Positions 1,630 to 19,686 of a stretch of DNA of 64,000 nt are shown in pieces; the first letter of the stretch is position 1, and every line of letters begins with the position of its first letter. The notes under the pieces were generated by a model. The model searched no databases and was not told where the DNA came from. It saw nothing but the letters and a program-made list of their open reading frames with translations. Source of the stretch: an uncultured Chromatiales bacterium (lineage in GTDB: Bacteria > Bacteroidota > Ignavibacteria > SZUA-365). The translations under genes were made by a program, and so were the position numbers. The DNA lies in the NCBI GenBank assembly GCA_964388275.1, contig CAYLZD010000010.1, forward strand, positions 8,023 to 72,022. Reading direction: 5' to 3'.

Positions 1630-1639
1630 GGAGAATCGA

Positions 1640-1894
1640 ATGTCCCTTAGATGTCGTCACGAATCGAAAGAGGTGGAGAAAGCCATCAGATACGCCGAGG
1701 CACATGGATGGAGACGGAGGAAAACCGGACATTCGGCGCATGCATGGAGCCGGCTCTTCTGTCCCGGAAAAGGCAGGGATGGTTGTCAGATGTCGGTCTG
1801 GGGCACGCCGCGTTCCCCGGAGGATCACGCGAAACAGATTAGGAGGCAGGTGGACCGATGTCCTCACGCTTCAGGAGGCAGAAGTGACGCTTAA
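1640..1894 (+). CDS. Small HicA-like (YcfA-fold) putative mRNA-interferase toxin, 84 aa.
   Basis: MSLRCRHESKEVEKAIRYAEAHGWRRRKTGHSAHAWSRLFCP matches the HicA pattern of G(W/F)xxxRxxGSHh followed by a hydrophobic stretch and P. Its 3' end overlaps the downstream HTH gene by 11 nt. SD GGAG lies 6 nt upstream. Confidence 0.5.
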   Translation: MSLRCRHESKEVEKAIRYAEAHGWRRRKTGHSAHAWSRLFCPGKGRDGCQMSVWGTPRSPEDHAKQIRRQVDRCPHASGGRSDA

Positions 1895-2495: not shown

Positions 2496-2552
2496 GCAGG
2501 TCAGCCTGTTCACAGTGATCGAATGCAGGTGAACGGCGACTTGTCCATGTGC

Positions 2553-3275
2553 TCAGAGCATCGCAGTCGACGCTCCCAGTATGAAGAGCAATCCCAGGGT
2601 CACCCGGCGGAAAAGAACCTCATCGATATGCCTGCTGATGCGGACGCCGGCCGCGGTTCCGAGCACGAGCGCCGGAAGCAGGCCCGCCGAGGTCAGGACC
2701 TCCTCGGTTCCACACAAGCCGGCGGGAATCATTCCGGCGAGCGTCACGATGTTGAGCAGGAAAAAATACGCGCTTATGTTCGTGCGGAACGAATCCTTGC
2801 GCAGCCGCTCCATGGAGAAATAAGCGATGATCGGAGGTCCCGACAGCGATACGCTGCCGTTCAGCACTCCGCTCAGAAAACCGAAAACGTAAGGCCGGCC
2901 GAAGCGGGCGTTTCTCATGAATGAAAAATCGGCCGCGGCCAGGAGGGCGAACGCCGCTATCACCGCGCCGGCGGCGGTTTTGAGATGCCCGGCGCTGATC
3001 ACCGAGAGTATCCAGATGCCTGCGGGGACGCCGATGGCGGCGGGCAGAAGTATGGAAACGATGGTCTTGAAACGCAGCTCTTCCACATGATCCTTGGCCA
3101 CCCACAGGTTCGTGACGATGCTCAACAATACGAGCACCGGCACCGCCTCGCGCATGCCCAATATCATTCCCAGCAGCGGAAGAGCGAGCAGCGATATCCC
3201 GAATCCCGTGATCCCCTGAATGCAGGCCGCGGCAAGCAGCACCAGGCTGCCCGTCAGGATCTGTTCGGGTATCAT
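2553..3275 (-). CDS. TauE/SafE family sulfite/anion exporter (DUF81) membrane protein.
   Basis: 240 aa and polytopic. The translation has the internal duplicated halves and GxGxG-like motifs (QGITGFGISLLALPLL; GVLNGSVSLSGPPIIAYF) typical of TauE/SafE. The start overlaps the upstream gene stop by 4 nt. Confidence 0.85.
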   Translation of the reverse strand: MIPEQILTGSLVLLAAACIQGITGFGISLLALPLLGMILGMREAVPVLVLLSIVTNLWVAKDHVEELRFKTIVSILLPAAIGVPAGIWILSVISAGHLKTAAGAVIAAFALLAAADFSFMRNARFGRPYVFGFLSGVLNGSVSLSGPPIIAYFSMERLRKDSFRTNISAYFFLLNIVTLAGMIPAGLCGTEEVLTSAGLLPALVLGTAAGVRISRHIDEVLFRRVTLGLLFILGASTAML

Positions 3276-3772
3276 CCCGGTAAATCGTCGTCATCCCCCG
3301 CTTCGTAATCCACTTCGCGGACGCGTTTGGTGTCGCGCAGAATCTCGACGCTGCGCCTGATCTCGTCGCGCAGCTTCTCCACTTCGGGGATAGCCTGCAG
3401 TGTCACCACCGGTGTCGATCTGTCGGAGGTGTTCATTACGAGTATTCCCCGGCGGACGAGGCGGAGGGAGAATGGCGAGACTATGGAGTAATCCTTCACG
3501 CGGTACAGTTCGAGTTCCTGCGTTTTGCGCGTGAAGACTCCTGTCGAGATAATTATGCGTTGATTGCTGACGCTGTATTTCGTGAATTTCGTTTTGAACC
3601 AGCGCGCGGCCGCGAAAGGCAGAATAAGGGCGGGGATGGCGAAAAGATACCACCAGTATTCGAACCACGGCGAGATCGCGAAAGGCACGATGATGAAAAG
3701 CAGCAGGATGAAGTACCATCCGAAATTCAGCCAATGCGAGGGTGTGCCCGTCCAGATGTTATTTTCTTCCAT
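3272..3772 (-). CDS. Bacterial PH-domain (bPH_2, YdbS/YdbT-like) membrane protein.
   Basis: Two N-terminal TM helices, then LYRVKDYSIVSPFSLRLVRRGILVMNTSDRSTPVVTLQAIPEVEKLRDEI, which is typical of PF03703. The start is chosen at MEENNIW (3772); the longer ORF reaches 3808. Confidence 0.7.
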   Translation of the reverse strand: MEENNIWTGTPSHWLNFGWYFILLLFIIVPFAISPWFEYWWYLFAIPALILPFAAARWFKTKFTKYSVSNQRIIISTGVFTRKTQELELYRVKDYSIVSPFSLRLVRRGILVMNTSDRSTPVVTLQAIPEVEKLRDEIRRSVEILRDTKRVREVDYEAGDDDDLPG

Positions 3773-3989
3773 GGTATTCGGCTCCGATGATCCAGTGTGA
3801 TACCGCAAATGTACGCAACGGCTCGGTTATCGTAAACTGGGATCCCGGATGACCTGTTTTCCCGCAAAACACACGAAACAAGCGAAACAGGCTGGAAAAA
3901 ATGGAGAGTAAGGATGTTTCGTGTCCTTCGCCTGTTCCGCGGGGGATCGATGCGGTTAAACTGCTTGTGGAAGGACTTGTACACTCCCC

Positions 3990-4600
3990 GCGCAAACCAG
4001 CAGGCGTCCTCGCGGCGACCTGCACTGCCACTCGCGCAACCCAGCAGGCGTCCTTTTAACGGCTCGCACAAGTCCTTTTATCGGCTTGCACTGTTTTTCC
4101 GCCGTGCGCAGTGTCCTTCGCGGCGGCCTGCACGGGCGCTCATGACAACTTGCGAGCGTCCTCGTGAGGACCTGCACAGGCACTCGCGCGAACTTCCCGG
4201 CACTTTTTGCGCGCTGACGAGCACCGGAAGCAGACTTTCACGCGCTCTTACATGCTTGCATGGCACTTGATGTATATTCGCAGGCAGCTTTTACGCACTT
4301 GCGGGCGTCCTCGCGGCGGCCTGCACGGGCACTCGTGACAACTTGCGAGCGTCCTCGTTAGGACCTGCACAGGCGCTCGCGCGAACCTCCCGGCACTTTT
4401 TGCGCGCTGACGAGCACCGGAAGCAGACTTTCACGCGCTCTTACATGCTTGCATGGCACTTGATGTATATTCGCAGGCAGCTTTTACGCACTTGCGGGCG
4501 TCCTCGCGGCGGCCTGCACGGGCACTCGTGACAACTTGCGAGCGTCCTCGTGGGGACCTGCACAGTCACTCGCGCAATCTGCCCGGCACTTATCGCGCGC
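3990..4600. repeat. Hierarchical tandem repeat array. A 193-bp unit is present in about 2.5 near-identical copies (4098-4290, 4291-4483, 4484 to about 4595) plus a degenerate leading copy. Each unit carries two about 44-bp sub-repeats.
   Basis: Direct comparison shows 'ttacgcacttgcgggcgtcctcgcggcggcctgcacgggcactcgtgacaacttgcgagcgtcctcg' at 4291 and again at 4484, a period of 193. The sub-repeats have the consensus GCG(A/G)GCGTCCTCG..GACCTGCAC.GGCACTCGCG and contain the hairpin GTCCTC-GT-GAGGAC. Confidence 0.9.
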
Positions 4601-4665
4601 CGACGACGGCTTTTCGTATGGGGTGAGGTCGAATCCGATTCCTTCCGGTCGCGGTTCCGGCCCGT

Positions 4666-5100
4666 CTACAATTCTTTCGCCAGGTCCGCAATCTGCTTCA
4701 GTATCCCCAGGCGTTTTTCGAGCATGCTGATCTCGATCTGCACGGCCTCGAGGGATACGAAACCCGCGCTAGTGTCGTTCGGCGGAAATTCCAGCGCCTT
4801 GTCTTCCTTGGCGATCTTCACCGCATTGGTTACAGCGCTTTTGGGCTTCCTGCCCGGCTTCTTGCGCTCAATGGACGCCGTGGGGGCCGTTCCGCTCTTG
4901 AAACCGTTATAGTAGGATTGTATCGCCGAAAACACCTTGTCCGTGATTCTTTTTGAATCACCCTTGGCGATTTTTGAAACAGTGAGACTGTTGACTCCTG
5001 TGGCCCGCGCTATACCCGCAATGCTCAGCGATCCGCGCAGTTCGTCGACCATGCGTTCAGCCAGGAGAACCCGGTCTTCGTTTGGTTGTTTACTGCTCAT
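4666..5100 (-). CDS. Small DNA-binding protein with an N-terminal HTH, an AT-hook (KKPGRKPK) and a C-terminal coiled coil.
   Basis: 144 aa. SLSIAGIARATGVNSLTVSKIAKG is HTH-like. RKKPGRKPKS is a GRP-type AT-hook. The C-terminal IEISMLEKRLGILKQIADLAKEL is heptad-like. Confidence 0.6.
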   Translation of the reverse strand: MSSKQPNEDRVLLAERMVDELRGSLSIAGIARATGVNSLTVSKIAKGDSKRITDKVFSAIQSYYNGFKSGTAPTASIERKKPGRKPKSAVTNAVKIAKEDKALEFPPNDTSAGFVSLEAVQIEISMLEKRLGILKQIADLAKEL

Positions 5101-5348
5101 TTTTTCTCCAATGATGTGTGATGTTCCGGGATTGAATGTGCGAAATATGCTTATATTCGGAATAAATGCAACTCGATTCTCTGCAATCCGCCGAACGGAA
5201 TCCGGCGCACTCGAAACGAAGCGGTCGGCGTGTTACGATTACGTGGTTGGAGTGTCAACCTGGCATATCGCGCTTGTGCGTATAAATCCATGAGCGGTGC
5301 GCGCGGAACAATATACCGTTTATTACACGTCAAACCACATCCACCAAT

Positions 5349-7619
5349 GTGTGCATCATGAAGCATCTTATGTGTGTCACCATGCCCGCGGTTTTGCTCG
5401 CGTTTCAGGCGGTGGTGTTCCTCTTGCCTTCTCACGACGCCTTGGCTCAACCGACACTTCATTTCAACCGCATCGAGGTCAACTGGCCCCAGGTTGAGCT
5501 ATGGTTCTCGGTGGATTGCAACGGAATACCCAATTTCGACGTTTCGAAATTCGATCTTCACGTCCGGGAGAACGGCACTCCGGTCGGCAACTTCGTCGTT
5601 GATTGCGGGGATTCCAAGCCCCGTTGTCCGCTCTCGGCGGCGCTGGTGTTCGACGCCAGCGGCAGCATGACAGGCATCGGCATATTCGACGCCAAGGAGG
5701 CGGGGAAGGCTTTCGTGGACGCCATGGACCCCGCGAACGACGAGGCGTGCATCATCGCGTTCAGCAGTCAGGTGACGGTGCTGCAGACGATGACAAGTTC
5801 CAAATCGTTGCTCAACGCGGCCATCGATTCGATATTCGCACGGGGCGGCACCGCCTTGATAGACGGCGCCTACGCCGGCATCCACGAGCTTGCGTCGAAC
5901 GGAATCCGTCCATGTAAGGCGGTAATTGTCCTGTCCGACGGTGTGGACAACATGAGCAGGCGCCGAATCGAGGAAGCGACCGATTTTGCCGTGAGCGAAG
6001 GCATACGAGTGTACACCATCGGCCTGGGGGTCCACATCGATACCGCCATGCTTCGCGATATCGCCATGCGCAGCGGCGGGCGGTTCTTCCTGTGTTCCTC
6101 GTCAAGGGAACTCGTCGACGTTTACAGGGCGATCGCCATGCTCGCAACGCGCGACACGTTGGACTGCGTAATCCGCTACACGGGCAGCTGCATCGACGGG
6201 GGGGAGCGTATTGTGGATCTTGCGGTCCGCAATTACTGCGGAGGTTCGGACAGCGCCTCGCTCGTTTTCAGGGCGCCGGACAATATCGGCCGCTACAGGC
6301 CTCTGGCCCTCGGTCTGCGGGGTTCGACGACGGTGGAAACCTCCGCAGCCGGGGCGGCGGTGGACCTGCTCGACACACTGAGCGGAGAGCTCTTTCCGAC
6401 CTTGGATCTGCTCATCTCCTATGATTCGATGCTGCTCGGTGCCCCGGCGCTTTCAGGGGCCGGTTCACTCTTATCGCCGTTCGACGGAAGCGTGGCGCTG
6501 ATGCGGCCCGGATTGGCCCATGTGCGTCTCCTGGGGCCGCGCAGCGTATCGGGCGCAGGTCGGCTCTTCCGGCTGGAGTTCCCGGCCGCCGCGGTGAACG
6601 ACACGGTTTGCGCCGGAGTGGCGATCGCATATGCTTCTTTCGACGAGGGGTGCTTCATCCCTTCTCTCGATTCATCGCAGCTCTGCATTCTGCCCTGTCT
6701 TTTGTCGCCGACTGTCGAACCGTCGGGTCCTGTCGATTTCTGCGAAGGCGACACAGTGTCGTTGCGCACACAGCCGGGACATCCGCGCTATGCCTGGCAC
6801 AGAAACGGCCTGCCGCTTTCCGATACTCTTTCCGAGTTGCGGACCGGTTCGGGAGGCGAATATCATGTTCTGGTCGTCGACTCGCTAGGATGCGTCGCCG
6901 TGTCCGCGCCGGTCGAGCTCAAAGCGTTGTCGCGGCTGTCGGGCAGCGCGGGCAACGGGGACACGATCGTCGCGAAGCAGGGCGACATCATACCGGTTCC
7001 GATAAGGCTTCGACCTTTCATCGGCGCGGGCCGCCGCGTCACGGCCCGAATTACATTGACGTGGGATCCGTCGAAGCTCGAACTACTCGACGCATACAGA
7101 ATGCGCGGAAGCGAGTGGCCCGACAGCTCTTTCGTTCGAGCCGATCCCGGCCGGCTGGATGTCGGCATGTCTGACACCGCGTCGGGAGCTGGGGAGGACT
7201 TGTTTACGGCCGCTTTCCGGGTGAATGCCTCGCGTGTTCCGACACCGGAGCGGATCGTCTGCGAAGCGTCGATTTCCACCGGCTGCGACGGCGAATGGCG
7301 CGTCGAGCACCCGGTGATACTCGTCGACGGCTATTGCGAACCCTTGTTGACGAGGATCTCGACGCCTGCCGTATACAACTCGCCCAATCCGTTTTCAGAC
7401 GAGACCGCGATCACCGTCGAAAATCCTTCCGGCGGATTCTGCTCGCTGCTGCTGACCGACGCTTTCGGGCGTCTGCTCGAATGTCTGTATGAAGGAGAAA
7501 CCGGGAGCCGGGACCGGACAATCCGCTTCAAAGCCGGGTCTTATCCCGCCGGAACATATTTTCTCGTGCTGCGCACGCCGGATTCCGGCGCGGTGCGCGG
7601 CATGCATATTCTTCGTTGA
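5349..7619 (+). CDS. von Willebrand factor A domain protein with Ig-like domains and a T9SS C-terminal sorting domain.
   Basis: Signal peptide. The vWA MIDAS motif is VFDASGSMTG...GGTALIDGAY...LSDGVDN. The C-terminus NPFSDETAITVENP...GTYFLVLRTPDSGAVRGMHIL matches the T9SS CTD pattern. Confidence 0.85.
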   Translation: MCIMKHLMCVTMPAVLLAFQAVVFLLPSHDALAQPTLHFNRIEVNWPQVELWFSVDCNGIPNFDVSKFDLHVRENGTPVGNFVVDCGDSKPRCPLSAALVFDASGSMTGIGIFDAKEAGKAFVDAMDPANDEACIIAFSSQVTVLQTMTSSKSLLNAAIDSIFARGGTALIDGAYAGIHELASNGIRPCKAVIVLSDGVDNMSRRRIEEATDFAVSEGIRVYTIGLGVHIDTAMLRDIAMRSGGRFFLCSSSRELVDVYRAIAMLATRDTLDCVIRYTGSCIDGGERIVDLAVRNYCGGSDSASLVFRAPDNIGRYRPLALGLRGSTTVETSAAGAAVDLLDTLSGELFPTLDLLISYDSMLLGAPALSGAGSLLSPFDGSVALMRPGLAHVRLLGPRSVSGAGRLFRLEFPAAAVNDTVCAGVAIAYASFDEGCFIPSLDSSQLCILPCLLSPTVEPSGPVDFCEGDTVSLRTQPGHPRYAWHRNGLPLSDTLSELRTGSGGEYHVLVVDSLGCVAVSAPVELKALSRLSGSAGNGDTIVAKQGDIIPVPIRLRPFIGAGRRVTARITLTWDPSKLELLDAYRMRGSEWPDSSFVRADPGRLDVGMSDTASGAGEDLFTAAFRVNASRVPTPERIVCEASISTGCDGEWRVEHPVILVDGYCEPLLTRISTPAVYNSPNPFSDETAITVENPSGGFCSLLLTDAFGRLLECLYEGETGSRDRTIRFKAGSYPAGTYFLVLRTPDSGAVRGMHILR

Positions 7620-7664
7620 GGAACGCCAGCCGTTGCGCCTTGTCAAGGAAAAGGACGCGGCATG

Positions 7665-8630
7665 TCAGATTTTGTCCCCGAACAGGCGCCGCACCCTCTC
7701 CCTATGGAAGGCTTTTTTGCGGAGTTCGAGAGCTTCGAGCGTCTTTGAAATATGCGCGGCAGCCGTTGACAGCGAGCAATCCACCGCAATGCCTTCGGCT
7801 CGAGCGAAGTACGAGGCGGCCGTGTCGAGCACTTTTTCGTGCGGATTGCCGGTGAGAATGCGCAGAATGAGCTCATCGGCGAGGCCGGCGGTGCCGGCAT
7901 TGGAGCGGGAGAGCGGGCCGAGTATGGTTCGCGCGGCGTAGTTCAGCATGCCCCGCTCGAGGTCTTCGAGCATATCCTCCAGATCATCGATCATCTGCCA
8001 GGCGACGGCCAGCGCATCGCAGCATTCCGCGAGAGGCGAGGCGAGACGGGGCCGGCCACTGAGCTCGCAGGCGGCCTGAACGCCGATGCGCAGGGCGGAG
8101 TTTGTTCCCGCATAGAGGCGCGGCAGGCGTGACGGCGAGCTCCTGAAATTCCGTCCGGCATCGGCAATCCGCGCTATGCTTTCACAGCTTGCCACGATCA
8201 GCATTTCATAATTCCGCCAGAATGGAGCGCGCGATTCGAACAGCGTTCTGAAAGTCGCGGCGGCTTCCGAGTAGAAAAGTGTGGCGGCGAAAATGCCGTT
8301 TCTGTTCGCCGCCTGCCCGTCGTATACGTCATCCTGAAGCCGCAGCGCCAGGAAAATGCAGGTCTGAGCCCATAGAATCCCCCTCAGTTGTCTTTGACGC
8401 AGAGGCGCCGGCCGGCGTCTATCGTGCGCCGCCGTGTAAACCGCGGCCGGTATCACGGCCCAGTAAGGGCCCAGCCTGCCGGCGGAATCGACTTCTGCTT
8501 CGAAGTCCAGATACGTCCGAAGGCGGCGCAGATACGGCCTTATCGCCTCGCGCAGCGCAGGGGATTGCGCGGCGGTGAATTCCGCCATCCTCTCCAGAAG
8601 CGTCATCGCTCGACCGTGTCCAGGGAACAT
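7665..8630 (-). CDS. Polyprenyl synthetase (trans-isoprenyl diphosphate synthase) family protein, divergent and possibly ComQ-like.
   Basis: There are two aspartate-rich motifs about 130 aa apart: LRLQDDVYDGQAANRNG (FARM-like DDxxD...RxG) and AWQMIDDLEDMLEDLERG (SARM-like FQIxDDxxD). The protein is 321 aa, typical for this fold. Confidence 0.55.
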   Translation of the reverse strand: MFPGHGRAMTLLERMAEFTAAQSPALREAIRPYLRRLRTYLDFEAEVDSAGRLGPYWAVIPAAVYTAAHDRRRPAPLRQRQLRGILWAQTCIFLALRLQDDVYDGQAANRNGIFAATLFYSEAAATFRTLFESRAPFWRNYEMLIVASCESIARIADAGRNFRSSPSRLPRLYAGTNSALRIGVQAACELSGRPRLASPLAECCDALAVAWQMIDDLEDMLEDLERGMLNYAARTILGPLSRSNAGTAGLADELILRILTGNPHEKVLDTAASYFARAEGIAVDCSLSTAAAHISKTLEALELRKKAFHRERVRRLFGDKI

Positions 8631-8761
8631 TTCATTGGAGCCGATAAGCGGGTGTGGTCAACCGCCACGGCTGCGGCGCATGGAGCAGCCCATTTCGACA
8701 TGAACACCGGGACGGCCGCGGACACGGCCGCCCCGGTCCATCATTCCTCTGCAAGGTGAGA

Positions 8762-9040
8762 TCAGAGCACCCAACCGCCCCAGGGTGGTTTCGGCGCCCT
8801 TCCGATGACGATTTCGAGGCCCGCTTCGTTGAGCTGTGTGTAGCGGAACATGAATTTCAATCCGGTTTTCATGTCTTCGGACAGCTTCGGGATCGCTTCA
8901 TTCAGGTAGTTCAGCCCTTCCTCATCCAACTCCCAACCGGCTTTGCCGAGTGTGCCGTGTATGTCTATCAGGAGGTTTTCGAAGAAGGGCGGATTTGCGA
9001 AGCACGCTTGTATCACGTCCTTGAGTTTTACCTGCTCCAT
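8762..9040 (-). CDS. Nif11-like domain small protein (92 aa) with a Trp-rich C-terminal tail; candidate precursor peptide.
   Basis: MEQVKLKDVIQACFANPPFFENLL...LGKAGWELDEEGLNYL resembles the Nif11 leader family (..LKAFLEKV...AKEAGFxxxxEEL). The C-terminus is IVIGRAPKPPWGGWVL. A strong SD AAGGAG lies 5 nt upstream of the ATG. Confidence 0.6.
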   Translation of the reverse strand: MEQVKLKDVIQACFANPPFFENLLIDIHGTLGKAGWELDEEGLNYLNEAIPKLSEDMKTGLKFMFRYTQLNEAGLEIVIGRAPKPPWGGWVL

Positions 9041-9094
9041 ATTGACTCCTTTGTTGTTGCGTTGGTTTTCGTGAGCCGTGTTTCGGCTACTGGA

Positions 9095-11539
9095 TCATCG
9101 GTTTGCTTTCTTGTCCGAGCGTCCGGTTTCCCTGCCGTCGAGGATGAGACGCAGGGCCGCGATGCGTTTCCGGGCCTCGTAAGCGCGGAAGGATGTTGAG
9201 TCTGCCGCGGCGAAGGATAGATAGTCGGCCAAGGCCGCGCCGATCATCTCCTGATTGTTCTCGTAGAGCTGGGCGCGCTCGTAATGCGCCGCCGCATAGC
9301 CGGGTCGCAGCTCGACGGCCCTGCTGAAGGCTGTGTCGGCCTCGGCCGCGCGTCCCTGGGCCGAATATGCGCGGCCCAAACGCAGATAATGATCGGCCTT
9401 GTCCGGTTTCATGGAAACGGCCTTCAGCGCGATCGCTTCGGCTCTCGAGTGAAGTCCGGCGGCCGCGTAATGATCGGCCAGGCTGCCGTACGCCGAGTCG
9501 AGCGAAGCGAATCGTTCGAGACAGGCGGTAACGTATCTTTGTTCCCAGATCTCGGTGGTGTCGGCCCTCGATCGCCTGGCTGCGATGGCTGCTCGAGCCG
9601 CCGAACTGCCCGGGTAGGGGGAGCAGATGTCCCAGTTGTGCTCGATTATGGATGCGGCCTGTTCGACTCGGTCGAGCGCGAGAGCGCAGAAAGCGGCGAT
9701 AGGATAAACCGGCGCATATTTCCAGCGGGCTTGCACGCAGGGCATGGCGAGCCCGAGGGCTTTTTCGTAATCCCCCTGAGCGACCGCCAGTTCGGCGAGA
9801 TTTATCAGCAGCACGTGATTGCCCGGCGAATACTCCAGCGCGATTTCCAGGTACCGCTGCTGTTCCGGCTGTCTGTCGTCGATTAGAGCGCCGACGTATT
9901 GTATCATGGCCCGCTCGAAGGGATTCGCCAGGCGCTCCTGCCGGAGCAGAATTTTATATTGCCTGCGGGCTTCGTTCCGATTCGGTCTGTACAGAAGATT
10001 TGAGATCAGCCATATTCGCGCGCTGATAAACGTCGAGTCGTATCGGAGCGTCCGCCTCAATTCCTTCTCCGCGGATTCGCCGCGGTATATGATGCGTCTG
10101 GCTTCGAGAAAGGCGAGCTGGGCCTGCAGATTCCGCGCCTTGCCCGCGAGCCAGGGCTGTACGCTGCTGTCGGCCCTAACTTGTCCCGCTATCATGAAAT
10201 GATCGGCTATCTGGGACGCCATGCTCCTGACGGCCTCGGGCAGGGCGTTCTCGTTGGCCAGCGGCTGCGCGGCCGCGTATTCCACCTCGCCGTTTTCGTT
10301 TACCACCCTGGTCTGCATCAGATACCCGGTGGTAGTCCGCGATATCGAACCCGTGATCACGTTCAGTATGCCTTCTTCCTCCAGGAAATCCCTGAAACCG
10401 CTTTCCCTGAAATCCGGTTCAGTCGATCCGAAAGCCGCGTGTATTTTCGAGTTGAGACTCAACGGATCTGTCAGGACGAGCGCCCCGCGTCCCGTCAACT
10501 CATGCACAAGCATTTGCTGCACCAGTTCCGGTATGCCGTCGAGAGACGCTTCGCCTGTCTGATTCTCGAACGGGAAAACGGCAAGCCGCATCGAGTCGCC
10601 GCGGCCGGGCTTTACCGGCAGTATGTAAGGTTTCCACAACGGCCAGGCGATCGCTGCCAGGGCAGTCAAGAGCAGCGCGAACAACAAGCGCCGTTTCAAG
10701 GAGCCCGGACCGCCGCCCGCTTCGCCGATGGCCGCCTGCGGGGCCGGTTGTTCGATATATGCCGGCCTGTCGGCGGCCTGCTTCCGAAGACAGGCCGAAA
10801 TTAATTCCGCTGTGGCCCCGGACACATGTGGAAGGCGTGTTTTTACGTCGGCTTCCTCGTACTGGATGGAATAGCTCAATGCCTGCGGATAGTCTCCGGT
10901 GAAGGGCGGCGATCCCCCCAGCATTTCGAAAAGCACAACGCCGAGCGACCAGATGTCGCTTCTTCCGTCGGACGCTTCCCCCCGTATGCGCTCGGGCGAC
11001 ATGTACGACAGAGTGCCGGCCGTCATGTATTCGAAGGTATCCTCCGAATACGGCGCTTTCGCCAATCCGAAATCGAGTATCTTGACGCTTCCGTCGGGGA
11101 GGAGGAACAGGTTTTCCGGTTTTATGTCCCTGTGCACAATTCCTTTCTCGTGAGCCGCTTGCAGTCCCCGGCCCGCCTGGAAAAACATATCGAGGGCCTT
11201 TTTCTCGTCTATCGGTCCCCGGCCGATAAGGTCTCTGAGAGACTCGCCCTCGTGATATCCCATCGCTATGAACAGCTCGCCGTCGTCTGTTTCGCCCACA
11301 GTGTGGATGCTGCATATGTTCGGATGTTCCAGAGCCGATGCGGCGCGCGCTTCCTCCATCAGCCGCCGCCTCGCCGCAGCGTCGAGGCGGTCCCTCGCCT
11401 TGACGAATTTAAGCGCGACTATGCGTCCGAGCGTCTCATCCTCGGCTTTGTATATCTCTCCCATCCCGCCTTCGGCAATCTTCTCCAGCAGTCGGTAACC
11501 GGGAATGCTTCCGCGCGCGCTTCGGTCGTTTGCGTCCAT
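9095..11539 (-). CDS. Ser/Thr protein kinase with a TM helix, a periplasmic sensor-like region and C-terminal TPR repeats.
   Basis: Hanks kinase motifs are present: GxGxxG-like IAEGGMGEIY, VALK, HRDIKPENLFL, DFGLAK and SPE. One TM helix (LLFALLLTALAAIAWPLW). The long C-terminal TPR-like region is rich in A/Y/R repeats. Confidence 0.9.
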   Translation of the reverse strand: MDANDRSARGSIPGYRLLEKIAEGGMGEIYKAEDETLGRIVALKFVKARDRLDAAARRRLMEEARAASALEHPNICSIHTVGETDDGELFIAMGYHEGESLRDLIGRGPIDEKKALDMFFQAGRGLQAAHEKGIVHRDIKPENLFLLPDGSVKILDFGLAKAPYSEDTFEYMTAGTLSYMSPERIRGEASDGRSDIWSLGVVLFEMLGGSPPFTGDYPQALSYSIQYEEADVKTRLPHVSGATAELISACLRKQAADRPAYIEQPAPQAAIGEAGGGPGSLKRRLLFALLLTALAAIAWPLWKPYILPVKPGRGDSMRLAVFPFENQTGEASLDGIPELVQQMLVHELTGRGALVLTDPLSLNSKIHAAFGSTEPDFRESGFRDFLEEEGILNVITGSISRTTTGYLMQTRVVNENGEVEYAAAQPLANENALPEAVRSMASQIADHFMIAGQVRADSSVQPWLAGKARNLQAQLAFLEARRIIYRGESAEKELRRTLRYDSTFISARIWLISNLLYRPNRNEARRQYKILLRQERLANPFERAMIQYVGALIDDRQPEQQRYLEIALEYSPGNHVLLINLAELAVAQGDYEKALGLAMPCVQARWKYAPVYPIAAFCALALDRVEQAASIIEHNWDICSPYPGSSAARAAIAARRSRADTTEIWEQRYVTACLERFASLDSAYGSLADHYAAAGLHSRAEAIALKAVSMKPDKADHYLRLGRAYSAQGRAAEADTAFSRAVELRPGYAAAHYERAQLYENNQEMIGAALADYLSFAAADSTSFRAYEARKRIAALRLILDGRETGRSDKKANR

Positions 11540-11549
11540 GGAAGAATCC

Positions 11550-12893
11550 TCAGGGCGCGCTCCGGCGCCGTATTGCGACCGCTGTGAGGTCGTCGCGCTT
11601 GTATTCAGGACAGGAAAATGAATCCACCGCCGAACATACGGATTTCACGATCCCTGCCGCGGTCGCTTCGCGGGTTTTGTCGAGCAGATCGGAAAGCGCC
11701 TTCTCGCCGAACTGCGTTCCGCGGTCGTCCGCCGCCTCGGTTATGCCGTCCGTGAACATCAGGAGAGCGTCTCCGGGCGCAATAGCGACCGCGAGTTCCC
11801 TGTATTTCTGGTCGGGGAAAATGCCGAGCAGAAGTCCGCCCGGCCTCTCGAGCGATCCGACGCCGCCGCCGGCACTTATTAGCAACGGCACATCATGACC
11901 GGCGCTCGCATATGTAAAACTGTGAGCGGCCGGATCGAGCACGCCGTAAAGGATCGTGATGAACATCGCGTCAGCCGCCTCGCCGCAAAGGGCGTCGTTG
12001 AGCGCTTCGAGGCATGCTCCCGGACCTTTGTCCTTCCGCGCGAGCACGCGCATGAGAGTTCTCGCGACGGACATGAACATGGCCGCGGGAATGCCTTTGC
12101 CCGAAACGTCCGCAACCACGACTCCCCAGCGGCCGCCCGCGAGCGGTATGTAGTCGAAGTAGTCTCCTCCGATCAGTTGAGCCGGCACGTACGCGCCGGC
12201 GATCTCGTAACCGGCAATGCTCGGGGTATCGGCGGGCAGGAGGGACCTCTGTATCCCGGCGGCCATGCGCATTTCCTGCTGCAACAGCCGGAGCTCGGCC
12301 TCCTCCTCGGCAAGGCGCGCGCTTTCCAGCACCTGCGCTGATTGTGCGCCGATGATCGCCAGCAGCCGCTGGTCCTCTTCCGAAAAACCGCGGGCGCCGC
12401 ATTTGTTGTAAAGCGCCAGGACTCCAGTCATAGCGCCTTTGACCAGCAGCGGAACGGCGAGGAGGGAACTCACACCGGCATCCCAGACGATTCCCGGAAA
12501 ACGCGCATCCCCGTTTACAGTCTCGATCCGGAGCGGCGCCCTGTTCTTGATCATCCAACCTATCAATGCCTGATCGATGTGGTAGCTGGGTTGCTCCAAT
12601 TTAGTCAGCTTGCTGCGCACCAGGGTGCGCGAGTCCTGTCCGGTATTCCTCTCGACAAGTGTGATAGCGCCCTGTTCGGCGTTCAATCTCCGAGTCGCCT
12701 GCCGCACTATCACTTCGATGATTTCGGAGGTCGTGTGCATTCCTCCGATCTGACCGGCGAGAGTGTTGAGATACGACAGCTCGTCGAGCGAGCGTTTGAG
12801 GCGGTCGATCTCGAACGCCGCGGGAGTTTCCTGCTTGTCGGCTGCTGAAGGATCCATTTTGTCTTTGATATCCGGGCGATATATCGGCGGCAT
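11550..12893 (-). CDS. GAF domain-containing PP2C-type (SpoIIE/RsbU-like) serine phosphatase.
   Basis: A GAF-like region is followed by the PPM fold with a metal-binding GDYFD motif, VADVSGKG and FTDGITEA. The start is chosen at MPPIYRP (12893); the longer ORF to 13085 has a non-protein-like N-terminus. Its stop is 11 nt from the kinase start. Confidence 0.8.
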   Translation of the reverse strand: MPPIYRPDIKDKMDPSAADKQETPAAFEIDRLKRSLDELSYLNTLAGQIGGMHTTSEIIEVIVRQATRRLNAEQGAITLVERNTGQDSRTLVRSKLTKLEQPSYHIDQALIGWMIKNRAPLRIETVNGDARFPGIVWDAGVSSLLAVPLLVKGAMTGVLALYNKCGARGFSEEDQRLLAIIGAQSAQVLESARLAEEEAELRLLQQEMRMAAGIQRSLLPADTPSIAGYEIAGAYVPAQLIGGDYFDYIPLAGGRWGVVVADVSGKGIPAAMFMSVARTLMRVLARKDKGPGACLEALNDALCGEAADAMFITILYGVLDPAAHSFTYASAGHDVPLLISAGGGVGSLERPGGLLLGIFPDQKYRELAVAIAPGDALLMFTDGITEAADDRGTQFGEKALSDLLDKTREATAAGIVKSVCSAVDSFSCPEYKRDDLTAVAIRRRSAP

Positions 12894-13223
12894 TCCCGCC
12901 CGCCGTCGTCGTCCAAGCGCCTGAATCGTCCGTATCCGGCATGGAAGGAATCCGCCATTGCAATGCGCTCCGGAAAGAGTGTTTGCCGGTCCCGAACAGT
13001 ACGATTGAAACCGCGAAATGATAGGATTTCCGCAAGACAAAAGCAAGAATCGCGACTTTGTTCGGGGATTGCGGAGAGCGGTCAAGCGGCCGCCGTCGCT
13101 TCCACACCGGCCCCGTTACCCGCGCGGCGGACAAGCCGGCTCGTCGGGCGCGCCGATGAGATACGCCGATGTGCCGGGACCGGTCAAGGTTATCGGGAAG
13201 CCGTCAGTACCCGGCGCCTTCCG

Positions 13224-15251
13224 TCAAGGCACTTGTGTATTCCGCGTGTTCCCAGTGTTGACCCCTCCGATATTGCGCAGAATCACGGCGCGGTCGTTTC
13301 CCGCGCCGGAATACTGCGTGACGCCGTTCATGCCCGTGTCTTCGCGGTGGTACCCGGCTGCGGTTGCAGTGATGTCGCCGCTGCCAAGGCGCAGAAGGAT
13401 GAAGGACGGATCGTTGCCGGCGCCGGTGTACTTCAGCTGTCCATCCGCATTCGCATCACCGGACCACATTCCGAAAGGCGCTTGTCCCGCCGACAAACCT
13501 GTCATCGGCTCCGTGCCGTACGCCTGCGCCTGCGCCGTGGTGAAGTCGTACAGCGGTGTGGCCGCGTCGATGCGGATGGTATCGGAGCTCATGACGGCCA
13601 GGTGATTTCTGTGCCGGATCACCAGGTAATACGGTCCCGGGGTCAGCGCGGGGAAGGACACGGGGCTGCTTCCGTTCAGGTCGGTGATGCGGCCGTTCGC
13701 GTGCAGGAAGGCGGCCCTCCTCGCCGCGGATGTTCCTCCGGGCGTCGTTCGGAGTTCCAGCAGCAACCAGTCGACGATGGTGTTCGCGGGGATGGATCCC
13801 ACGCTTTCGGCGCCTGCGTAATTCCACGGCTGTGTATTGTAAGGTTGTGATAGAGGAAGCAGGCAGCCGCTTCCCAGAGAAACCGACATGCCGCCGGCCG
13901 GACCCGACCACGGGCCCTGCAGGAATATCTTGGCATCGACGATGCAGGCCGTCGCGGCGCCGGCCGAGTAACCCGTGAAATCGCCACCGAGCTGAACGCC
14001 GGTTGCGCTCAGTAGATTCGCGGCCGTGTCCGCTTTGTTCCGCTTGAACCACTGCGAGGCGATCCATTGGCCCGTGTGCATGTTGTCCTCTGGTCCGACA
14101 ATATCCGCATCCGTGTATTTGAATTGCGCGCTGCCGATACCGACGGAAGTGGACAGCACATCCACCGCCCAGTATCGATTGATGTAGGATGCCTGGCTCG
14201 TGTTCTGCGGGTGCTTGGCGTTCGCCACCCTCACGCCGGCGCCGTAGGTCCCGCTGATGTTGGTGAACTGAAGAACCGCAGGAGAATACTCGGCCGTTCC
14301 CGTCAGGTCGCCCAGCGGGTAAGTGTAGGCGCCGGCCGCGCTGAAACGTCTGATCAGCATGCCGGCGCCGGTGGTGGCTATCATGTCGTTTGCCGAGAAT
14401 CCGGCCGAAGTAGTAATTATCGAACCGGTGGTCCCGATTATAGCGTTCGAATCGCCGATCGAGAGAATCGCGCCTGACAGAGTTAAAATGCCGTTGGAAT
14501 TCAAGACTCCGGTCAGCGTCTTGGTGCTGGCGGACAGTATCAGATCGTCGTCATACGTGCCGCCCGGCAGATACTGTGCAGTTGTGGCATAGAATTCCAC
14601 GGCCCCCTGCCGCATCGGGAGATTCGAATACCAGCGCATCCCGGAAGGGAGCGGAGTCGGGCTCGTATTGGCGGTCCGCAGCTTGCCGCTCACCCAGGTC
14701 CAATCCGGCTTTCCCGACAGGCGGTAGACACCGAGATCGAAGACGGACTGATTGACGTTCGTGAAGCCCTCCACGTAGAGTTCGTGCGAGACAGAGATGT
14801 CTCCGCCGGCCGCGACTGTGCGTGTGGCGCCGGTGGCTTCGGTTTTCAACGAGTGATAAGTTCCCGCCGGCACGGTTTGAGCGCCCGCGGCGCTGAAGAA
14901 AACGTAACTTCCCCATGTTTTCCCGGAGGGCAGAGGCGTCGCCGAAGTGTTTTCCGTGTAAATGAAGCCGCTGTTGGCTACGGCGCCGCTGAAGACCAGT
15001 GCATATTGCTTCAGGAAGAGGTTGATGTTTGTGTTGACGGAGAGCGAAGCGAAGGAATATACGCCGATGTTCTCGTCAACGGTGCAATTAGCCGCGATCA
15101 CCACATCGTCTCCGTTGCCGGGTTTCTGGGCATTCTGCCAGTTCGTCGCGGTGCTCCAATTTCCGGCCGTCATGAAGGTGCGAACGGCGGCGTCGACGCG
15201 TACGGTCGTTAGTGCCGCGAAGATGGCGCAAATAAGCAAGCTTGTTTTCAT
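13224..15251 (-). CDS. Secreted repeat protein with a signal peptide and internal ~45-aa repeats; hypothetical.
   Basis: The signal peptide is MKTSLLICAIFAALTTVRVDAA. A repeated unit reads SATPLPSGKTWGSYVFF.AAGAQTVPAGTYHSL / TSPTPLPSGMRWYSN...AQYLPGGTYDD. A C-terminal Ca-binding-like GDANADGQLKYTGAGND is present. No canonical T9SS CTD. Confidence 0.65.
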   Translation of the reverse strand: MKTSLLICAIFAALTTVRVDAAVRTFMTAGNWSTATNWQNAQKPGNGDDVVIAANCTVDENIGVYSFASLSVNTNINLFLKQYALVFSGAVANSGFIYTENTSATPLPSGKTWGSYVFFSAAGAQTVPAGTYHSLKTEATGATRTVAAGGDISVSHELYVEGFTNVNQSVFDLGVYRLSGKPDWTWVSGKLRTANTSPTPLPSGMRWYSNLPMRQGAVEFYATTAQYLPGGTYDDDLILSASTKTLTGVLNSNGILTLSGAILSIGDSNAIIGTTGSIITTSAGFSANDMIATTGAGMLIRRFSAAGAYTYPLGDLTGTAEYSPAVLQFTNISGTYGAGVRVANAKHPQNTSQASYINRYWAVDVLSTSVGIGSAQFKYTDADIVGPEDNMHTGQWIASQWFKRNKADTAANLLSATGVQLGGDFTGYSAGAATACIVDAKIFLQGPWSGPAGGMSVSLGSGCLLPLSQPYNTQPWNYAGAESVGSIPANTIVDWLLLELRTTPGGTSAARRAAFLHANGRITDLNGSSPVSFPALTPGPYYLVIRHRNHLAVMSSDTIRIDAATPLYDFTTAQAQAYGTEPMTGLSAGQAPFGMWSGDANADGQLKYTGAGNDPSFILLRLGSGDITATAAGYHREDTGMNGVTQYSGAGNDRAVILRNIGGVNTGNTRNTQVP

Positions 15252-15270
15252 CCTGTCATCTCGCTCGATG

Positions 15271-16389
15271 TCATTTCGAAAATGCAGATCCGCGCCGACC
15301 GCCCGCCTCCGCTTTGAAACGGGTCACGGCCGTCGCTTCCGGCGTTCGCAGAAGCAGGAAATACACCCCGGGCACGAGACTTCCCGCATCGAAACCGAGA
15401 GTGTGAAATCCGGCGGGAAGTTCATGTCTCGCGATGATGTTGCGCACGGGCATCCCGAGAAGATTGAAAACGGCGGCCGAGACCGTGCCGGGCGCCGACA
15501 GCGAGAAGGAAAGGACCGCGCGTCCGGCGGCGGGATTCGGATGCACTGAGCAGTGTAATACCGGGGGCGGCCCGCCGACGATCATCACTTCCACGGTTTG
15601 TGAATATTCGAAAAGTCCGCCGGCGCCGCCGAAGCGCAATCTGTAGGCTACGATCGAGGCATCGCGGTCGCTTGCGACAAATGCGGCGGGGAAGGGATCG
15701 AGGAAACGGAAGTCCCCATGTTCGTCTCTGTCCATGCCGTCCACCGTGCCGACGCGTTTCCAGCCTTCGCTGTCACATCGGCGTTCTATCTCGAAGCCGA
15801 GTGGAGGCGCCGTGCCTTCGTATTTCCAGACGAGCAGCACCGCGCCGTCGTCCGGCACGGCAGAGAGCGACGACAGGGCGACTGGAAGCGGCACACTGCC
15901 GGCGTCCGGCTGGAAAAGGCTGCCGGTCTTGTCGAGACCGGCGATCTCCGCGTAGTATTCGCCGTTGTTTGCGGCGGTCCACGAGTCGTCGGCAAGCTCG
16001 AAGACGCCGCTTCCGCTTCCGGTTTGTCTGACGGGCACGGTGACGACGGATATCTGGGTGTTGGCGCTCCAATTGATGGTTTGCGCCGTGGCGGCTGCGA
16101 ATTTCTGGTATCGGTATACGCCGGAAGTCCGCTCGATGCCCTGCTTCTCTATCGAGTACGCGGCGGATGACGGATCGCCGAGACCGACGCCGTAAGCGTC
16201 GAGCCAGCGCACCGTGAAAACGATGTTCGAGAGCGGCAAGGCGGGCACCGTGTCGGAAGCCCGCAGCCGCACTTCGAGAGTGGAATCGCCGGCGTGGAAT
16301 ATACCGGCGGAGATCTGTTGCGCTTTCGAACCGGGAATCATCGGGCAGAGCAGGAATACTCCCGCGGTCACAGCGGCGATCGTTTTCAT
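15271..16389 (-). CDS. Secreted protein with a T9SS C-terminal sorting domain; hypothetical.
   Basis: The start at MKTIAAVTAGVFLLCPMIPGSKAQQ is a signal peptide, with GGAG upstream. The C-terminal HPNPAAGRAVLSFSLSAPGTVSAAVFNLLGMPVRNI...GVYFLLLRTPEATAVTRFK fits the T9SS CTD. Confidence 0.75.
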   Translation of the reverse strand: MKTIAAVTAGVFLLCPMIPGSKAQQISAGIFHAGDSTLEVRLRASDTVPALPLSNIVFTVRWLDAYGVGLGDPSSAAYSIEKQGIERTSGVYRYQKFAAATAQTINWSANTQISVVTVPVRQTGSGSGVFELADDSWTAANNGEYYAEIAGLDKTGSLFQPDAGSVPLPVALSSLSAVPDDGAVLLVWKYEGTAPPLGFEIERRCDSEGWKRVGTVDGMDRDEHGDFRFLDPFPAAFVASDRDASIVAYRLRFGGAGGLFEYSQTVEVMIVGGPPPVLHCSVHPNPAAGRAVLSFSLSAPGTVSAAVFNLLGMPVRNIIARHELPAGFHTLGFDAGSLVPGVYFLLLRTPEATAVTRFKAEAGGRRGSAFSK

Positions 16390-16948
16390 TTTCGACTCCT
16401 GTGCATATGGAACATACGTCCGGTATATCAGTGATCCCGACCGTTTTCCGTTTCCTTTGGAAGAAACAACAGTTGTTGGTAATAATAGAATTTGCGCCGG
16501 CCAAAAGCAATGAAAAATCAAATGGATTTTCCGATTCGTGGATATGGACTGCCCTAGTCCGCCAGAGATGGCGGTGTCGTCGGATGTAAATGTACGCCGC
16601 TGTTCCAGGAAGAAATCATCAGGAATCCGGCGCAGGGAAATAGGTTGAAAAATATCCGAATTTATATTGACTTTGTTCGCGGGGAAGAGTAGCTTTGATC
16701 TTCGTTTTTCATCAGCCCCACAAATCCTTCGAAAGGAAAATTATCGGTTTCACGAACGTGCGCACCTGACAGCTTCGGATGTCGTAGCAGGAGCAGTTGT
16801 ACCGCGGCTGCTTGTCTGTAGCGGAAGGATGACGCAAAAAGGCACGAATTCGGTTCGATGTGAACAACGAAGAGAATATCGCAGCGTCGCAAGGCGCGCG
16901 GTTGGAAGTCACTATACCATTCATCCCAATAATCAGGAGGACTGATTC

Positions 16949-17626
16949 ATGAAGTTAACCACGAGATTTCTCTCGTTCTTATCCCTGGTGGTCTTCACGG
17001 CAGTCGCATTGCAGGCGCAGTCGTTCACGATCCAGCCTACCGCATTGACGATAGCGCAGGGCGGTTCCGGGCAGATCACTCTGGAGAGCACGGTGGGCGA
17101 GCCGCAGGAGTGGAAAGTTGTGCAGCCGGTTTCGCCGAGCATAGCGGTGGCCCCGATGCAGGGCGCGCTTCCGGGCCATGCTCATGAAGCGGTGACGATC
17201 AAGGCGCTGGGCAAGCCGGGCGAGCGCGTAGGCCTTACCTTCACGAATGGAAAGGAAAAGGTCGGCGTGCGCGTGACCATCGGCAAGCCGGGAAGCGACG
17301 GAGTTGTGACAGGCGGCTGGAGTCTGTCTCCCATGGAGGGAGTATTCAGCGGCAAACCGGTTCAGGTGATTGTGAAGAACAGCACGAACAAACCGCTCAA
17401 TTTCACGGTCGGACGCATTCCCAAGACCATCAACGTCGCTCCGATGAGCGGCAATGTTCCGCCTATGGGCGAATTTCCGGTGAATATCGACGTCAAGATC
17501 GAAGGTTCGGTCTCGTCCACTCCGATATTGATTCCGTTCAACGCCTTGAAGGAGACGAAGAACTTCAAACTGACCATCAAGCCGCCTCCTCCTCCGCCGA
17601 ATCCGACGGATATCAAACCGAGATAA
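16949..17626 (+). CDS. Secreted protein with a proline-rich C-terminus (signal peptide MKLTTRFLSFLSLVVFTAVALQAQS); hypothetical.
   Basis: 225 aa. Two internal beta-rich repeats contain ...VAPMQG.LPG... / ...VAPMSGNVPP.... The protein ends KPPPPPPNPTDIKPR. Confidence 0.6.
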   Translation: MKLTTRFLSFLSLVVFTAVALQAQSFTIQPTALTIAQGGSGQITLESTVGEPQEWKVVQPVSPSIAVAPMQGALPGHAHEAVTIKALGKPGERVGLTFTNGKEKVGVRVTIGKPGSDGVVTGGWSLSPMEGVFSGKPVQVIVKNSTNKPLNFTVGRIPKTINVAPMSGNVPPMGEFPVNIDVKIEGSVSSTPILIPFNALKETKNFKLTIKPPPPPPNPTDIKPR

Positions 17627-17788
17627 ACCGGTCTTAAATTTTGCAGGCTGTTGTCGAAATATGTATTATCGACTTCGCCGGCTGTCTCAATCCGGCGAAG
17701 AACACCCGCATATTTCCTGAATCCCGGTCTGTCGATCGATATCCGCCGATAGATTTCTCCGGACGAGATCCGGAGTCATCTTGATCAT

Positions 17789-17842
17789 GGAACGCATCAC
17801 CGTCCGCGGAAAAGGCGGGCGGTGATGCGTTCCGATTTTTTA
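17789..17842 (+). terminator. Rho-independent terminator-like hairpin (13-bp stem) followed by a T-run, immediately upstream of the OMP gene.
   Basis: ggaacgcatcacc (17789-17801), an 19-nt loop, ggtgatgcgttcc (17821-17833), then GATTTTTTA. Confidence 0.5.
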
Positions 17843-17907
17843 TCCTCATCAATTCCCAAAATATGAAATGGACGAGCTTGCCGAAGCGGAACACGGCGTC
17901 GGCGCGT

Positions 17908-19632: not shown

Positions 19633-19686
19633 TCTGTTTCCAAACCCTGCCGACGGACACCCGCATATTGTAAAAGGAAGCACCCC

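Follow-up and report, generated by a model that had tools for sequence, protein, structure and literature searches.

A candidate tryptophan-prenylated peptide cassette with a Hanks-type receptor kinase in Ignavibacteria and other Gram-negative lineages

We analyzed a 64,000-nucleotide stretch of genomic DNA, here called the window, from an uncultured bacterium of the Ignavibacteria (GTDB lineage SZUA-365; GenBank assembly GCA_964388275.1, contig CAYLZD010000010.1, positions 8,023 to 72,022 of the forward strand). We found that it carries a conserved three-gene cassette composed of a receptor Ser/Thr kinase, a probable NHLP-type precursor peptide, and an enzyme related to the peptide prenyltransferase PalQ. 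The gene content, the domain architecture, the homology to PalQ, the conservation of the enzyme motifs and of the Trp-containing peptide tail, and the synteny across phyla are directly established. Judging from the sequences, we lean modestly toward the view that this is a cassette for a prenylated peptide, similar to PalPXQ and ComQXPA but with a Hanks-type receptor kinase standing in for the histidine kinase. ComQXPA and PalPXQ each place a sensor kinase beside an enzyme-peptide pair, and they therefore provide a precedent for this reading.

Organization of the locus

All coordinates are positions in the window. A first-pass annotation of this DNA had described four co-directional genes on the minus strand, and the open reading frame (ORF) check bore out all four and their positions. 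Identical copies of the module are present on four public contigs, from which the gene-caller starts were taken. None of the four proteins has a name in the public records. The module comprises the following features.

7665..8630, minus strand: PalQ-like enzyme with a predicted trans-isoprenyl diphosphate synthase (trans-IDS) fold, candidate peptide tryptophan prenyltransferase (321-aa ORF)
8762..9040, minus strand: probable NHLP-clan precursor peptide, 92 aa, ending ...GRAPKPPWGGWVL, with a helical leader-like domain at residues ~3-60
8765..8797, minus strand: Pro/Gly/Trp-rich tail APKPPWGGWVL, residues 82-92, candidate core, read directly from the sequence
8780-8782 and 8771-8773, minus strand: codons of W87 and W90, the candidate prenyl acceptors
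9095..11539, minus strand: Hanks-type Ser/Thr kinase, 814 aa (PF00069, 169.8 bits)
10760-11497, minus strand: cytoplasmic kinase domain, residues 15-260
10631-10687, minus strand: single predicted transmembrane (TM) segment, residues 285-303
9098-10630, minus strand: extracytoplasmic region, residues 304-814, a conserved N-terminal part followed by tetratricopeptide (TPR) repeats
11550..12893, minus strand: cytoplasmic GAF plus SpoIIE/PPM (PP2C-type) phosphatase, 447 aa from the gene-caller start, ATG 12893

The enzyme is a distant homologue of PalQ

PalQ of Paenibacillus alvei belongs to the isoprenoid synthase superfamily, where it makes up a separate cluster in a similarity network. Its substrate is the NHLP-type precursor PalX, which it prenylates on the C-terminal Trp, and its gene adjoins that of the histidine kinase PalP (PMC10853753). 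We recovered the pal locus via PalX and added three further Paenibacillus loci to obtain a four-PalQ alignment and hidden Markov model (HMM). In hhalign comparisons, the window enzyme family matched the single PalQ with a probability of 97.5 (E 5e-12). It matched the four PalQs with a probability of 98.9 (E 2.9e-17) over 285 columns, which is essentially full length. In the control comparison, Escherichia coli IspA aligned with a probability of 46 and over only 34 columns around the second Asp-rich motif. The four-PalQ HMM found 145 of 151 family members and all 47 locus enzymes, but none of ~4,300 decoy ORFs. It matched the window enzyme itself with 46.6 bits (E 7e-13); the pairwise BLASTP comparison with PalQ gave an E of 1e-6 at 25% identity. 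By these comparisons, the enzyme is a full-length, distant PalQ homologue and a candidate Trp prenyltransferase, and neither a housekeeping IDS nor a member of the ComQ family. The first-pass annotation had likened the enzyme to a peptide-Trp prenyltransferase, a likeness upheld by its homology to the experimentally proven PalQ. It had also named a grouping with IspA as the result that would speak against it, and the profile comparisons revealed no such grouping.

The motifs of the window enzyme (minus strand) are PYW at residues 55-57, LQDDVYD with D100, D101, and D104, PFW at 136-138, Q212-MI-DDLEDMLED with D215, D216, D219, and D223, and N230. Across 60 homologues, Q89, D100, D104, D215, D216, D219, and D223 are invariant, and W57, P61, D101, F137, Q212, and N230 are at least 90% conserved. 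Thus, both Asp-rich motifs noted in the first pass (LQDDVYD and IDDLEDM) are present in the 321-aa protein and conserved across the family, but the "RNG" that had been noted after the first of them is not. In PalQ, the first motif rich in aspartate (FARM) contains D89 and D93, the second (SARM) contains D200 and D204, and Q197 hydrogen-bonds the indole NH. These residues align with window D100/D104, D215/D219, and Q212, respectively, and the PYW and PFW motifs are common to both enzymes. The characterized trans-IDS-like peptide prenyltransferases (ComQ, ChrPC-P, and PalQ) all act on Trp, and a Gln shortly upstream of the SARM is a determinant that they share, according to a 2026 review (PMC13290415).

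The ComQ-family enzymes carry a pseudo-SARM, NDxxx, instead of a second Asp-rich motif. The window family does not fit this pattern, as its DDxxD is invariant. Because a true SARM is found where the ComQ family has a pseudo-SARM, we consider the enzyme to be PalQ-like rather than ComQ-like. The earlier assignment to a ComQ-like family also fails by PF00348, which scored the window enzyme at 13.1 bits (E 0.054) against a cutoff of 27.

The enzyme escapes recognition by the curated libraries, and for PalQ-type Trp prenyltransferases InterPro does not yet have an entry. It has no NCBIfam match, and no family member reaches a Pfam or NCBIfam isoprenoid-model cutoff. Even a weak PF00348 (polyprenyl_synt) match was found in only 10 of the 60 homologues, and the other sub-threshold matches among members were to SQS_PSY (PF00494) and Terpene_synth_C (PF03936). 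A word-seeded protein search with the enzyme found only itself, a single-sequence PDB search found nothing, and the PHROGs collection held nothing relevant. PDB profile matches covered only ~50-70 residues, at E >= 2e-4. The exhaustive phmmer scan, in contrast to these searches, returned 375 cluster representatives at E <= 1e-3 and 219 at E <= 1e-10, all of ~300-320 aa and 23-40% identical.

An AlphaFold2 model of the enzyme, built from the family alignment, is all-helical (pLDDT 91.7, pTM 0.90). In fold comparisons, this model scored 19-22.6 against trans-IDSs, 19.5 against the Trp prenyltransferase Ord1, ~18 against MoeN5, and 13 or less against terpene cyclases and squalene synthases. Because of these fold scores and the lack of curated-library recognition, we assign the modeled enzyme a trans-IDS-like fold, not a terpene-cyclase-like or squalene-synthase-like one, in a sequence family of its own.

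Could the protein nevertheless be an ordinary small-molecule isoprenoid enzyme, either a chain-elongating or a terpene synthase, next to an unrelated small regulatory protein whose Trp tail is incidental? The weak matches to PF00348, PF00494, and PF03936 would suit such an enzyme, and its best structural matches are chain-elongating synthases. However, the isoprenoid cutoffs are missed by every member, IspA aligns over 34 columns where PalQ aligns in full, and the adjoining ORF, a regular neighbor of the enzyme gene, belongs to a family of NHLP-clan precursors whose tail Trp is invariant. In addition, apart from the enzyme itself, no isoprenoid pathway gene was found near the module in the window or in the neighborhoods of the related loci. 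We regard this explanation as very improbable, and we rejected a housekeeping IDS of the IspA or GGPPS type on the same PF00348 and IspA results.

The precursor peptide has a probable NHLP-type leader and a Trp-containing tail

The 92-aa peptide is encoded between the kinase and the enzyme. As the first pass had noted, its gene has a strong Shine-Dalgarno sequence: AAGGAG sits 5 nt 5' of the ATG. We tested the peptide against curated models directly and through its syntenic homologues. By itself it matched only PF14407, at an E of 0.093, and the family-level NHLP matches were stronger. For this reason, its NHLP assignment rests on a leave-one-out HMM of 17 syntenic homologues, which matched the window peptide with 46.5 bits (E 2.6e-16). 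Among the 18 family peptides, NF038399 ("Os1348 family NHLP clan") matched 8, with a best E of 7.8e-12 and one match above the curated cutoff. PF14407 matched 7 of the 18, and TIGR03793 (leader_NHLP) matched 4. The precursor family also aligned with the PalX family in hhalign (probability 89.7, E 1.8e-6) over the first two leader helices. Through its family, then, the window peptide is placed in the NHLP leader clan and not in Nif11. It had been called Nif11-like before, but the Nif11 model TIGR03798 did not match it at E <= 1 and matched only one of the 18 homologues, at E 0.1; the homologues match the NHLP models instead. A word-seeded search with the peptide found only itself, and a single-sequence structure model was discarded (pLDDT 51.8).

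The family alignment has only two invariant columns, Met1 and the tail Trp, which is W87 in the window peptide. We compared 53 unique tails from 60-odd loci with the C termini of control ORFs. A Trp is present within the last 15 residues in 49 of the 53 tails but in only 19% of the control C termini; the corresponding binomial P of 1e-30 overstates the independence of the data, because the peptide sequences are related. Trp makes up 9.8% and Pro 18.5% of the tail residues. The residue before the tail Trp is mostly Pro, and the residue after it is mostly Pro or Gly. Usually 0 to 13 residues follow the last Trp, with 21-36 in four cases. The window peptide has two residues (VL) past W90, and a terminal Trp like that of PalX is found in only 3 of the 53 tails. 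The acceptor context preferred by PalQ is GW or GGW, and GGW90 of the window peptide fits it. The Trp-containing tail is thus kept in homologous peptides, as the first-pass proposal had supposed. Phosphorylation of the peptide at a conserved Ser or Thr was also considered, and rejected, as no Ser/Thr column is conserved in the alignment.

Several precursors differ from the common form. At locus L033 (1272-1637), the precursor has PPPPPPPPVW followed by a Lys-rich tail of ~35 residues (DKKKKDKKRKK...), unlike the short tails elsewhere, and one L014 precursor has 36 residues past the last Trp. Near-identical metagenome copies of the window precursor (P0165 and P0002) carry either G89R (codon 8774-8776, changing WGGW to WGRW) or F65V and L69P in the leader. 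A kinase variant, P0167, is paired with a precursor variant and differs from the window kinase by at least G687R. This micro-variation of precursor and kinase is possibly pherotype-like.

Kinase, precursor, and enzyme genes are syntenic across phyla

A genome scan with a 12-sequence enzyme alignment gave 17 loci, and a metagenome scan gave 44 more. The genome-scan loci come from metagenome-assembled genomes (MAGs) of Ignavibacteria, Bacteroidota/Cytophagia, Vicinamibacteria/Acidobacteriota, and Gemmatimonadota. A kinase homologue is directly upstream of the enzyme gene, on the same strand, at 37 of the 38 loci with more than 1 kb of upstream sequence. A peptide ORF positive with the family HMM lies between kinase and enzyme at 41 of the 52 loci with more than 450 bp upstream. 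We inspected twelve other loci by eye; ten have a candidate Trp-tailed ORF, and L035 and L053 have none. The synteny of enzyme and peptide in related genomes, on which the first-pass annotation had staked its proposal, therefore holds.

The cognate kinase at L014 scores 2e-130, versus 6e-76 or weaker for the paralogues in the same locus, and that at L047 scores 1e-134 versus 2e-55. Because these scores far exceed those of the paralogous kinases in the same loci, we consider the cognate kinases to be an orthologous set.

Some loci depart from the simple arrangement. At L014, a single module is surrounded by six tandem paralogues of the Ser/Thr kinase (4326-20801), L040 has two complete enzyme-plus-peptide modules (600-6902), and L005 (8370-9399) and L012 (9078-9744) have two precursor genes each. 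L020, from a Gemmatimonadetes MAG, is the only locus without a Ser/Thr kinase, and it has no peptide ORF. Its enzyme gene (2663-3552) appears frameshifted, with the N-terminal PEWLLLPAWL motif in a different frame from the rest, and is preceded (539-2623) by a cytoplasmic REC-PAS-HisKA-HATPase-REC hybrid histidine kinase.

The kinase has an intact catalytic domain and a TPR ectodomain

The window kinase retains its catalytic motifs (VALK, HRDIKPEN, DFG, and SPE), and we therefore rejected the possibility that it is a pseudokinase. TPR matches cover residues ~560-780, and a profile of the kinase ectodomain matches TPR proteins strongly at profile positions ~260-490. Nearly all of the orthologues have one TM segment after the kinase domain, and they share an alignable ectodomain of ~500 aa, the C-terminal half of which is TPR. 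No histidine kinase or response regulator is present within the window module.

The phosphatase ORF extends upstream to a TTG at 13085 (511 aa). PF07228 matches it over the full model at residues 317-508 with 175.7 bits, and it also has a GAF domain. A phosphatase is beside the module in few loci: on the upstream side in the window, L005, L014, and L021, and on the downstream side in L010 and L013. None of the long metagenome loci has one. We therefore rejected it as a core component; the GAF-PP2C phosphatase is an accessory, lineage-specific partner. The earlier idea of a kinase/PP2C pair wired to the module consequently stands for the kinase, which is the rule in four phyla, and falls for the phosphatase.

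Taken literally, the first-pass annotation described a ComQ/ComX orthologue with a Nif11-type leader in a four-gene unit that includes the PP2C phosphatase. The module does share the ComQX logic, in that a trans-IDS-like enzyme is paired with a short peptide with Trp near its C terminus and with a neighboring sensor kinase. However, the enzyme falls outside PF00348 and the ComQ type, its SARM is a true one, the Nif11 model does not recognize the peptide, and most loci lack the phosphatase. We give this literal version very little credence.

Proposed function of the cassette

We propose the following scheme for the PalPXQ-like cassette; its prenylation chemistry, modified Trp, leader cleavage, export, kinase sensing, and quorum-sensing role are all inferred. 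The cytoplasmic PalQ-like enzyme would bind the 92-aa precursor by its folded NHLP leader and would then transfer an isoprenyl group, probably C10-C20, from an allylic diphosphate to the indole of W87 or W90. In this reaction, the first Asp-rich motif would bind the diphosphate-Mg2+, and the indole NH would be positioned by Gln212 and Asp215, in line with proposals made for PalQ and Ord1. The lipidated tail would probably be freed from the leader and reach the periplasm or the outside. There the co-encoded single-pass kinase may use its TPR ectodomain to sense the tail or a membrane-embedded form of it. The kinase would phosphorylate cytoplasmic targets, and in this organism the GAF-PP2C phosphatase would reverse the phosphorylation.

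Several points weigh against this proposal. Its support is computational throughout, and the similarity to PalQ is a distant one at the pairwise level given above. A PalQ D200A/D204A mutant stayed active, which weakens the roles assigned to the motifs even in PalQ. The window peptide reaches no curated NHLP model and is placed only via its syntenic family. PalQ needs a Trp at the very C terminus (PMC13290415), but the Trp in the tails is mostly not C-terminal. Therefore, either the acceptor rules differ or trimming occurs. No protease, exporter, or further tailoring enzyme is conserved in the neighborhoods, although a lipopeptide would have to cross the inner membrane of a diderm. Finally, the tight kinase synteny indicates functional coupling but is not proof that the kinase is the receptor.

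Two other functions would retain a prenylated product. In the first, the product is a Trp-prenylated lipopeptide from the class of ribosomally made, post-translationally modified peptides (RiPPs) that does not signal to its own producer but acts as an antimicrobial, a surfactant, or another membrane-active agent. The kinase, together with the phosphatase, would then only control production or immunity, prompted by a different cue in the periplasm. According to a review, prenylation gives Trp peptides membrane and antimicrobial activity, and NHLP precursors such as Os1348 have been linked to antibiotic activity. The great diversity of the tails, including the cationic poly-Lys tail of L033, and the multiple precursors at L005 and L012 would also be in keeping with this function, as would the lack of export or cleavage genes that would indicate a pheromone pathway. 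However, the precursor is paired almost obligately with one orthologous kinase lineage, which mirrors ComP and PalP, and the immunity, transporter, and further tailoring genes usual in antibiotic RiPP clusters are missing. On balance, we consider this function unlikely, although it deserves to be kept in view.

In the second, the small protein is neither cleaved nor exported. Prenylated on Trp, the NHLP-fold protein would stay whole and be tethered to the inner membrane on its cytoplasmic side, where it would serve as an adaptor or regulator of the kinase domain. Such a protein would be analogous to the eukaryotic prenylated signaling proteins. The enzyme, the peptide, and the kinase domain share a cytoplasmic location, conserved proteases or exporters are lacking, and a related small protein, Os1348, is stable and dimeric. 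This function would, however, give the ~500-aa TPR ectodomain, conserved as it is, no part in the module, and the leaders of PalX and ComX are cleaved. The N-terminal domain of the precursor is kept across phyla and looks like a folded module, but recognition by the enzyme predicts conservation of the leader equally well. We therefore hold an adaptor role to be distinctly unlikely.

Relation to known systems and significance

The cassette resembles PalP-PalX-PalQ (Miyata, Ito & Fujinami 2023) in several respects. The enzymes are homologous over their full length and have the PYW, QDDxxD, PFW, and Q-x-x-DDxxD-x-x-x-D...N motifs in common, and both precursors are assigned to the NHLP clan, in the window by way of the syntenic family, with a conserved Trp at or near the C terminus. 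A membrane sensor kinase gene is beside the pair in both, and neither cluster has a dedicated exporter or protease. There are also differences. PalP is a histidine kinase, whereas the kinase of the window cassette is of the Hanks Ser/Thr type and has a TPR ectodomain. The pal genes are in the order Q-X with palP convergent, but here the order is kinase-X-Q on one strand. The Trp is strictly C-terminal in PalX and usually inside a Pro/Gly-rich tail here. The pal hosts are Firmicutes, whereas these hosts are diderms of the FCB group, Acidobacteriota, and Gemmatimonadota.

In Bacillus subtilis, the ComQXPA system uses ComQ to prenylate a Trp of ComX, and ComP/ComA sense the product. The window cassette is similar in having a trans-IDS-fold enzyme, a short precursor with Trp a few residues from the C terminus, and an adjacent sensor kinase, and the tail variation between strains (G89R here) recalls pherotypes. 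In contrast, ComQ belongs to PF00348/IPR033965 and has NDxxx, whereas the window family has the complete DDxxD and falls short of PF00348. ComX does not carry an NHLP-type leader, and ComP/ComA form a two-component system where the window has a Ser/Thr kinase and a PP2C phosphatase.

A third system, StheQ/StheX of Sphaerobacter thermophilus, likewise pairs an enzyme with a short peptide that is encoded beside it and has Trp close to the C terminus, and its preprint presents the extension of such systems beyond Firmicutes as new (bioRxiv 10.64898/2026.08.29.745113). StheQ is a ComQ-family enzyme with a pseudo-SARM, by which description only we set it apart from the window enzyme. The word "kinase" is absent from the text of the preprint (bioRxiv 10.64898/2026.08.29.745113).

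Ord1, an all-alpha indole prenyltransferase of Streptomyces (PDB 9v4g), has Q216 and D219 at the positions of the Q-x-x-D pair, whose Gln precedes the second Asp motif and whose Asp is part of it. However, Ord1 acts on free Trp, and its sequence similarity to the window enzyme is not significant (E 2.2). Canonical trans-IDSs differ in that they condense isopentenyl diphosphate and have no link to precursor peptides.

The window kinase resembles receptor Hanks kinases of the PknB/Stk1 type in having a cytoplasmic kinase domain, one TM segment, and an extracytoplasmic ligand-binding repeat domain, but theirs is a PASTA ectodomain and the window kinase has TPRs. TPR modules are established peptide binders. 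The TPR peptide receptors of the RRNPP type share the TPR with the window kinase; however, they are cytoplasmic and are not kinases.

The first pass had suggested that a system of this kind was not described. The enzyme-plus-precursor logic is in fact already known from ComQ/ComX, PalQ/PalX (2023), and StheQ/StheX (2026 preprint), and the enzyme-peptide-kinase logic was published for PalPXQ in 2023 (PMC10853753). The suggestion survives for the Hanks-kinase version: we found no description of PalQ-like enzymes with Ser/Thr kinases, or in these Gram-negative phyla, in the part of the literature that could be searched.

To our knowledge, Trp-prenylated peptide signals are known experimentally only in Firmicutes (ComX and PalX), apart from one enzyme-peptide pair in Chloroflexi that a 2026 preprint describes. 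Trp prenylation would gain a far wider taxonomic reach from a cassette conserved in at least four Gram-negative phyla. We tentatively raise the possibility, although our expectation tilts against it, that this is the first peptide-pheromone-type cell-cell signaling in the diderm FCB group, Acidobacteriota, and Gemmatimonadota. It would involve a Trp-lipidated ribosomal peptide, a PalQ-like enzyme, and periplasmic sensing by a Ser/Thr kinase with a TPR ectodomain. As far as we know, the ligands of bacterial Hanks-type receptor kinases are mostly unknown, and a hard-wired candidate ligand gene makes the question directly testable here. If true, periplasmic sensing of a lipidated peptide would be a new ligand-receptor class for these kinases. 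The enzymes may also accept an internal Trp in Pro- or Gly-rich contexts, unlike PalQ, which could be of practical use in peptide lipidation. In addition, the analysis supplies a functional hypothesis for a family of at least 375 clusters at 50% identity that has neither a Pfam or NCBIfam model nor a public annotation name.

Gene starts, spacers, and flanking genes

Public gene callers start the enzyme at 8606, which gives 313 aa, and the family alignments begin there too; this is likely the true start. The kinase and peptide genes are 54 nt apart, and the peptide and enzyme genes are 131-155 nt apart. The phosphatase gene ends 10 nt before the kinase start, not the 11 nt reported in the first pass. 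The peptide-enzyme spacer contains one further feature.

8706..8737, minus strand: GC-rich hairpin with a 14-bp stem and a 4-nt loop, ~25 nt past the precursor stop codon

This hairpin has no U-tract and is not called by the terminator scan, and the z-score of the region is only -1.6. It may be an attenuator or an RNA stabilizer and, by analogy with other RiPP operons, could set the ratio of precursor to enzyme expression. Scans for sigma-70 promoters, terminators, and the Bacteroidetes-type TAnnTTTG motif were uninformative.

The flanking proteins are large and secreted or of the type IX secretion system (T9SS) type, and none is kept beside the module in other loci. On one side (13224-16521, minus strand) are a 675-aa protein without a family match and a 416-aa protein with a Por_Secre_tail, the T9SS sorting tail of which scores 23.6 bits with TIGR04183 against a cutoff of 23. 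Such a tail fits a host of the Bacteroidota/Ignavibacteria type. On the other side (5349-7619, plus strand) is a convergent 756-aa VWA-domain protein. Two genes away from the module, a 144-aa ORF (4666-5100, minus strand) matches the MogR DNA-binding domain below threshold (23.3 bits, cutoff 25) and is a possible small transcription regulator. The window also contains two very large ORFs on the plus strand, of 1960 aa (19687-25569) and 1429 aa (30699-34988).

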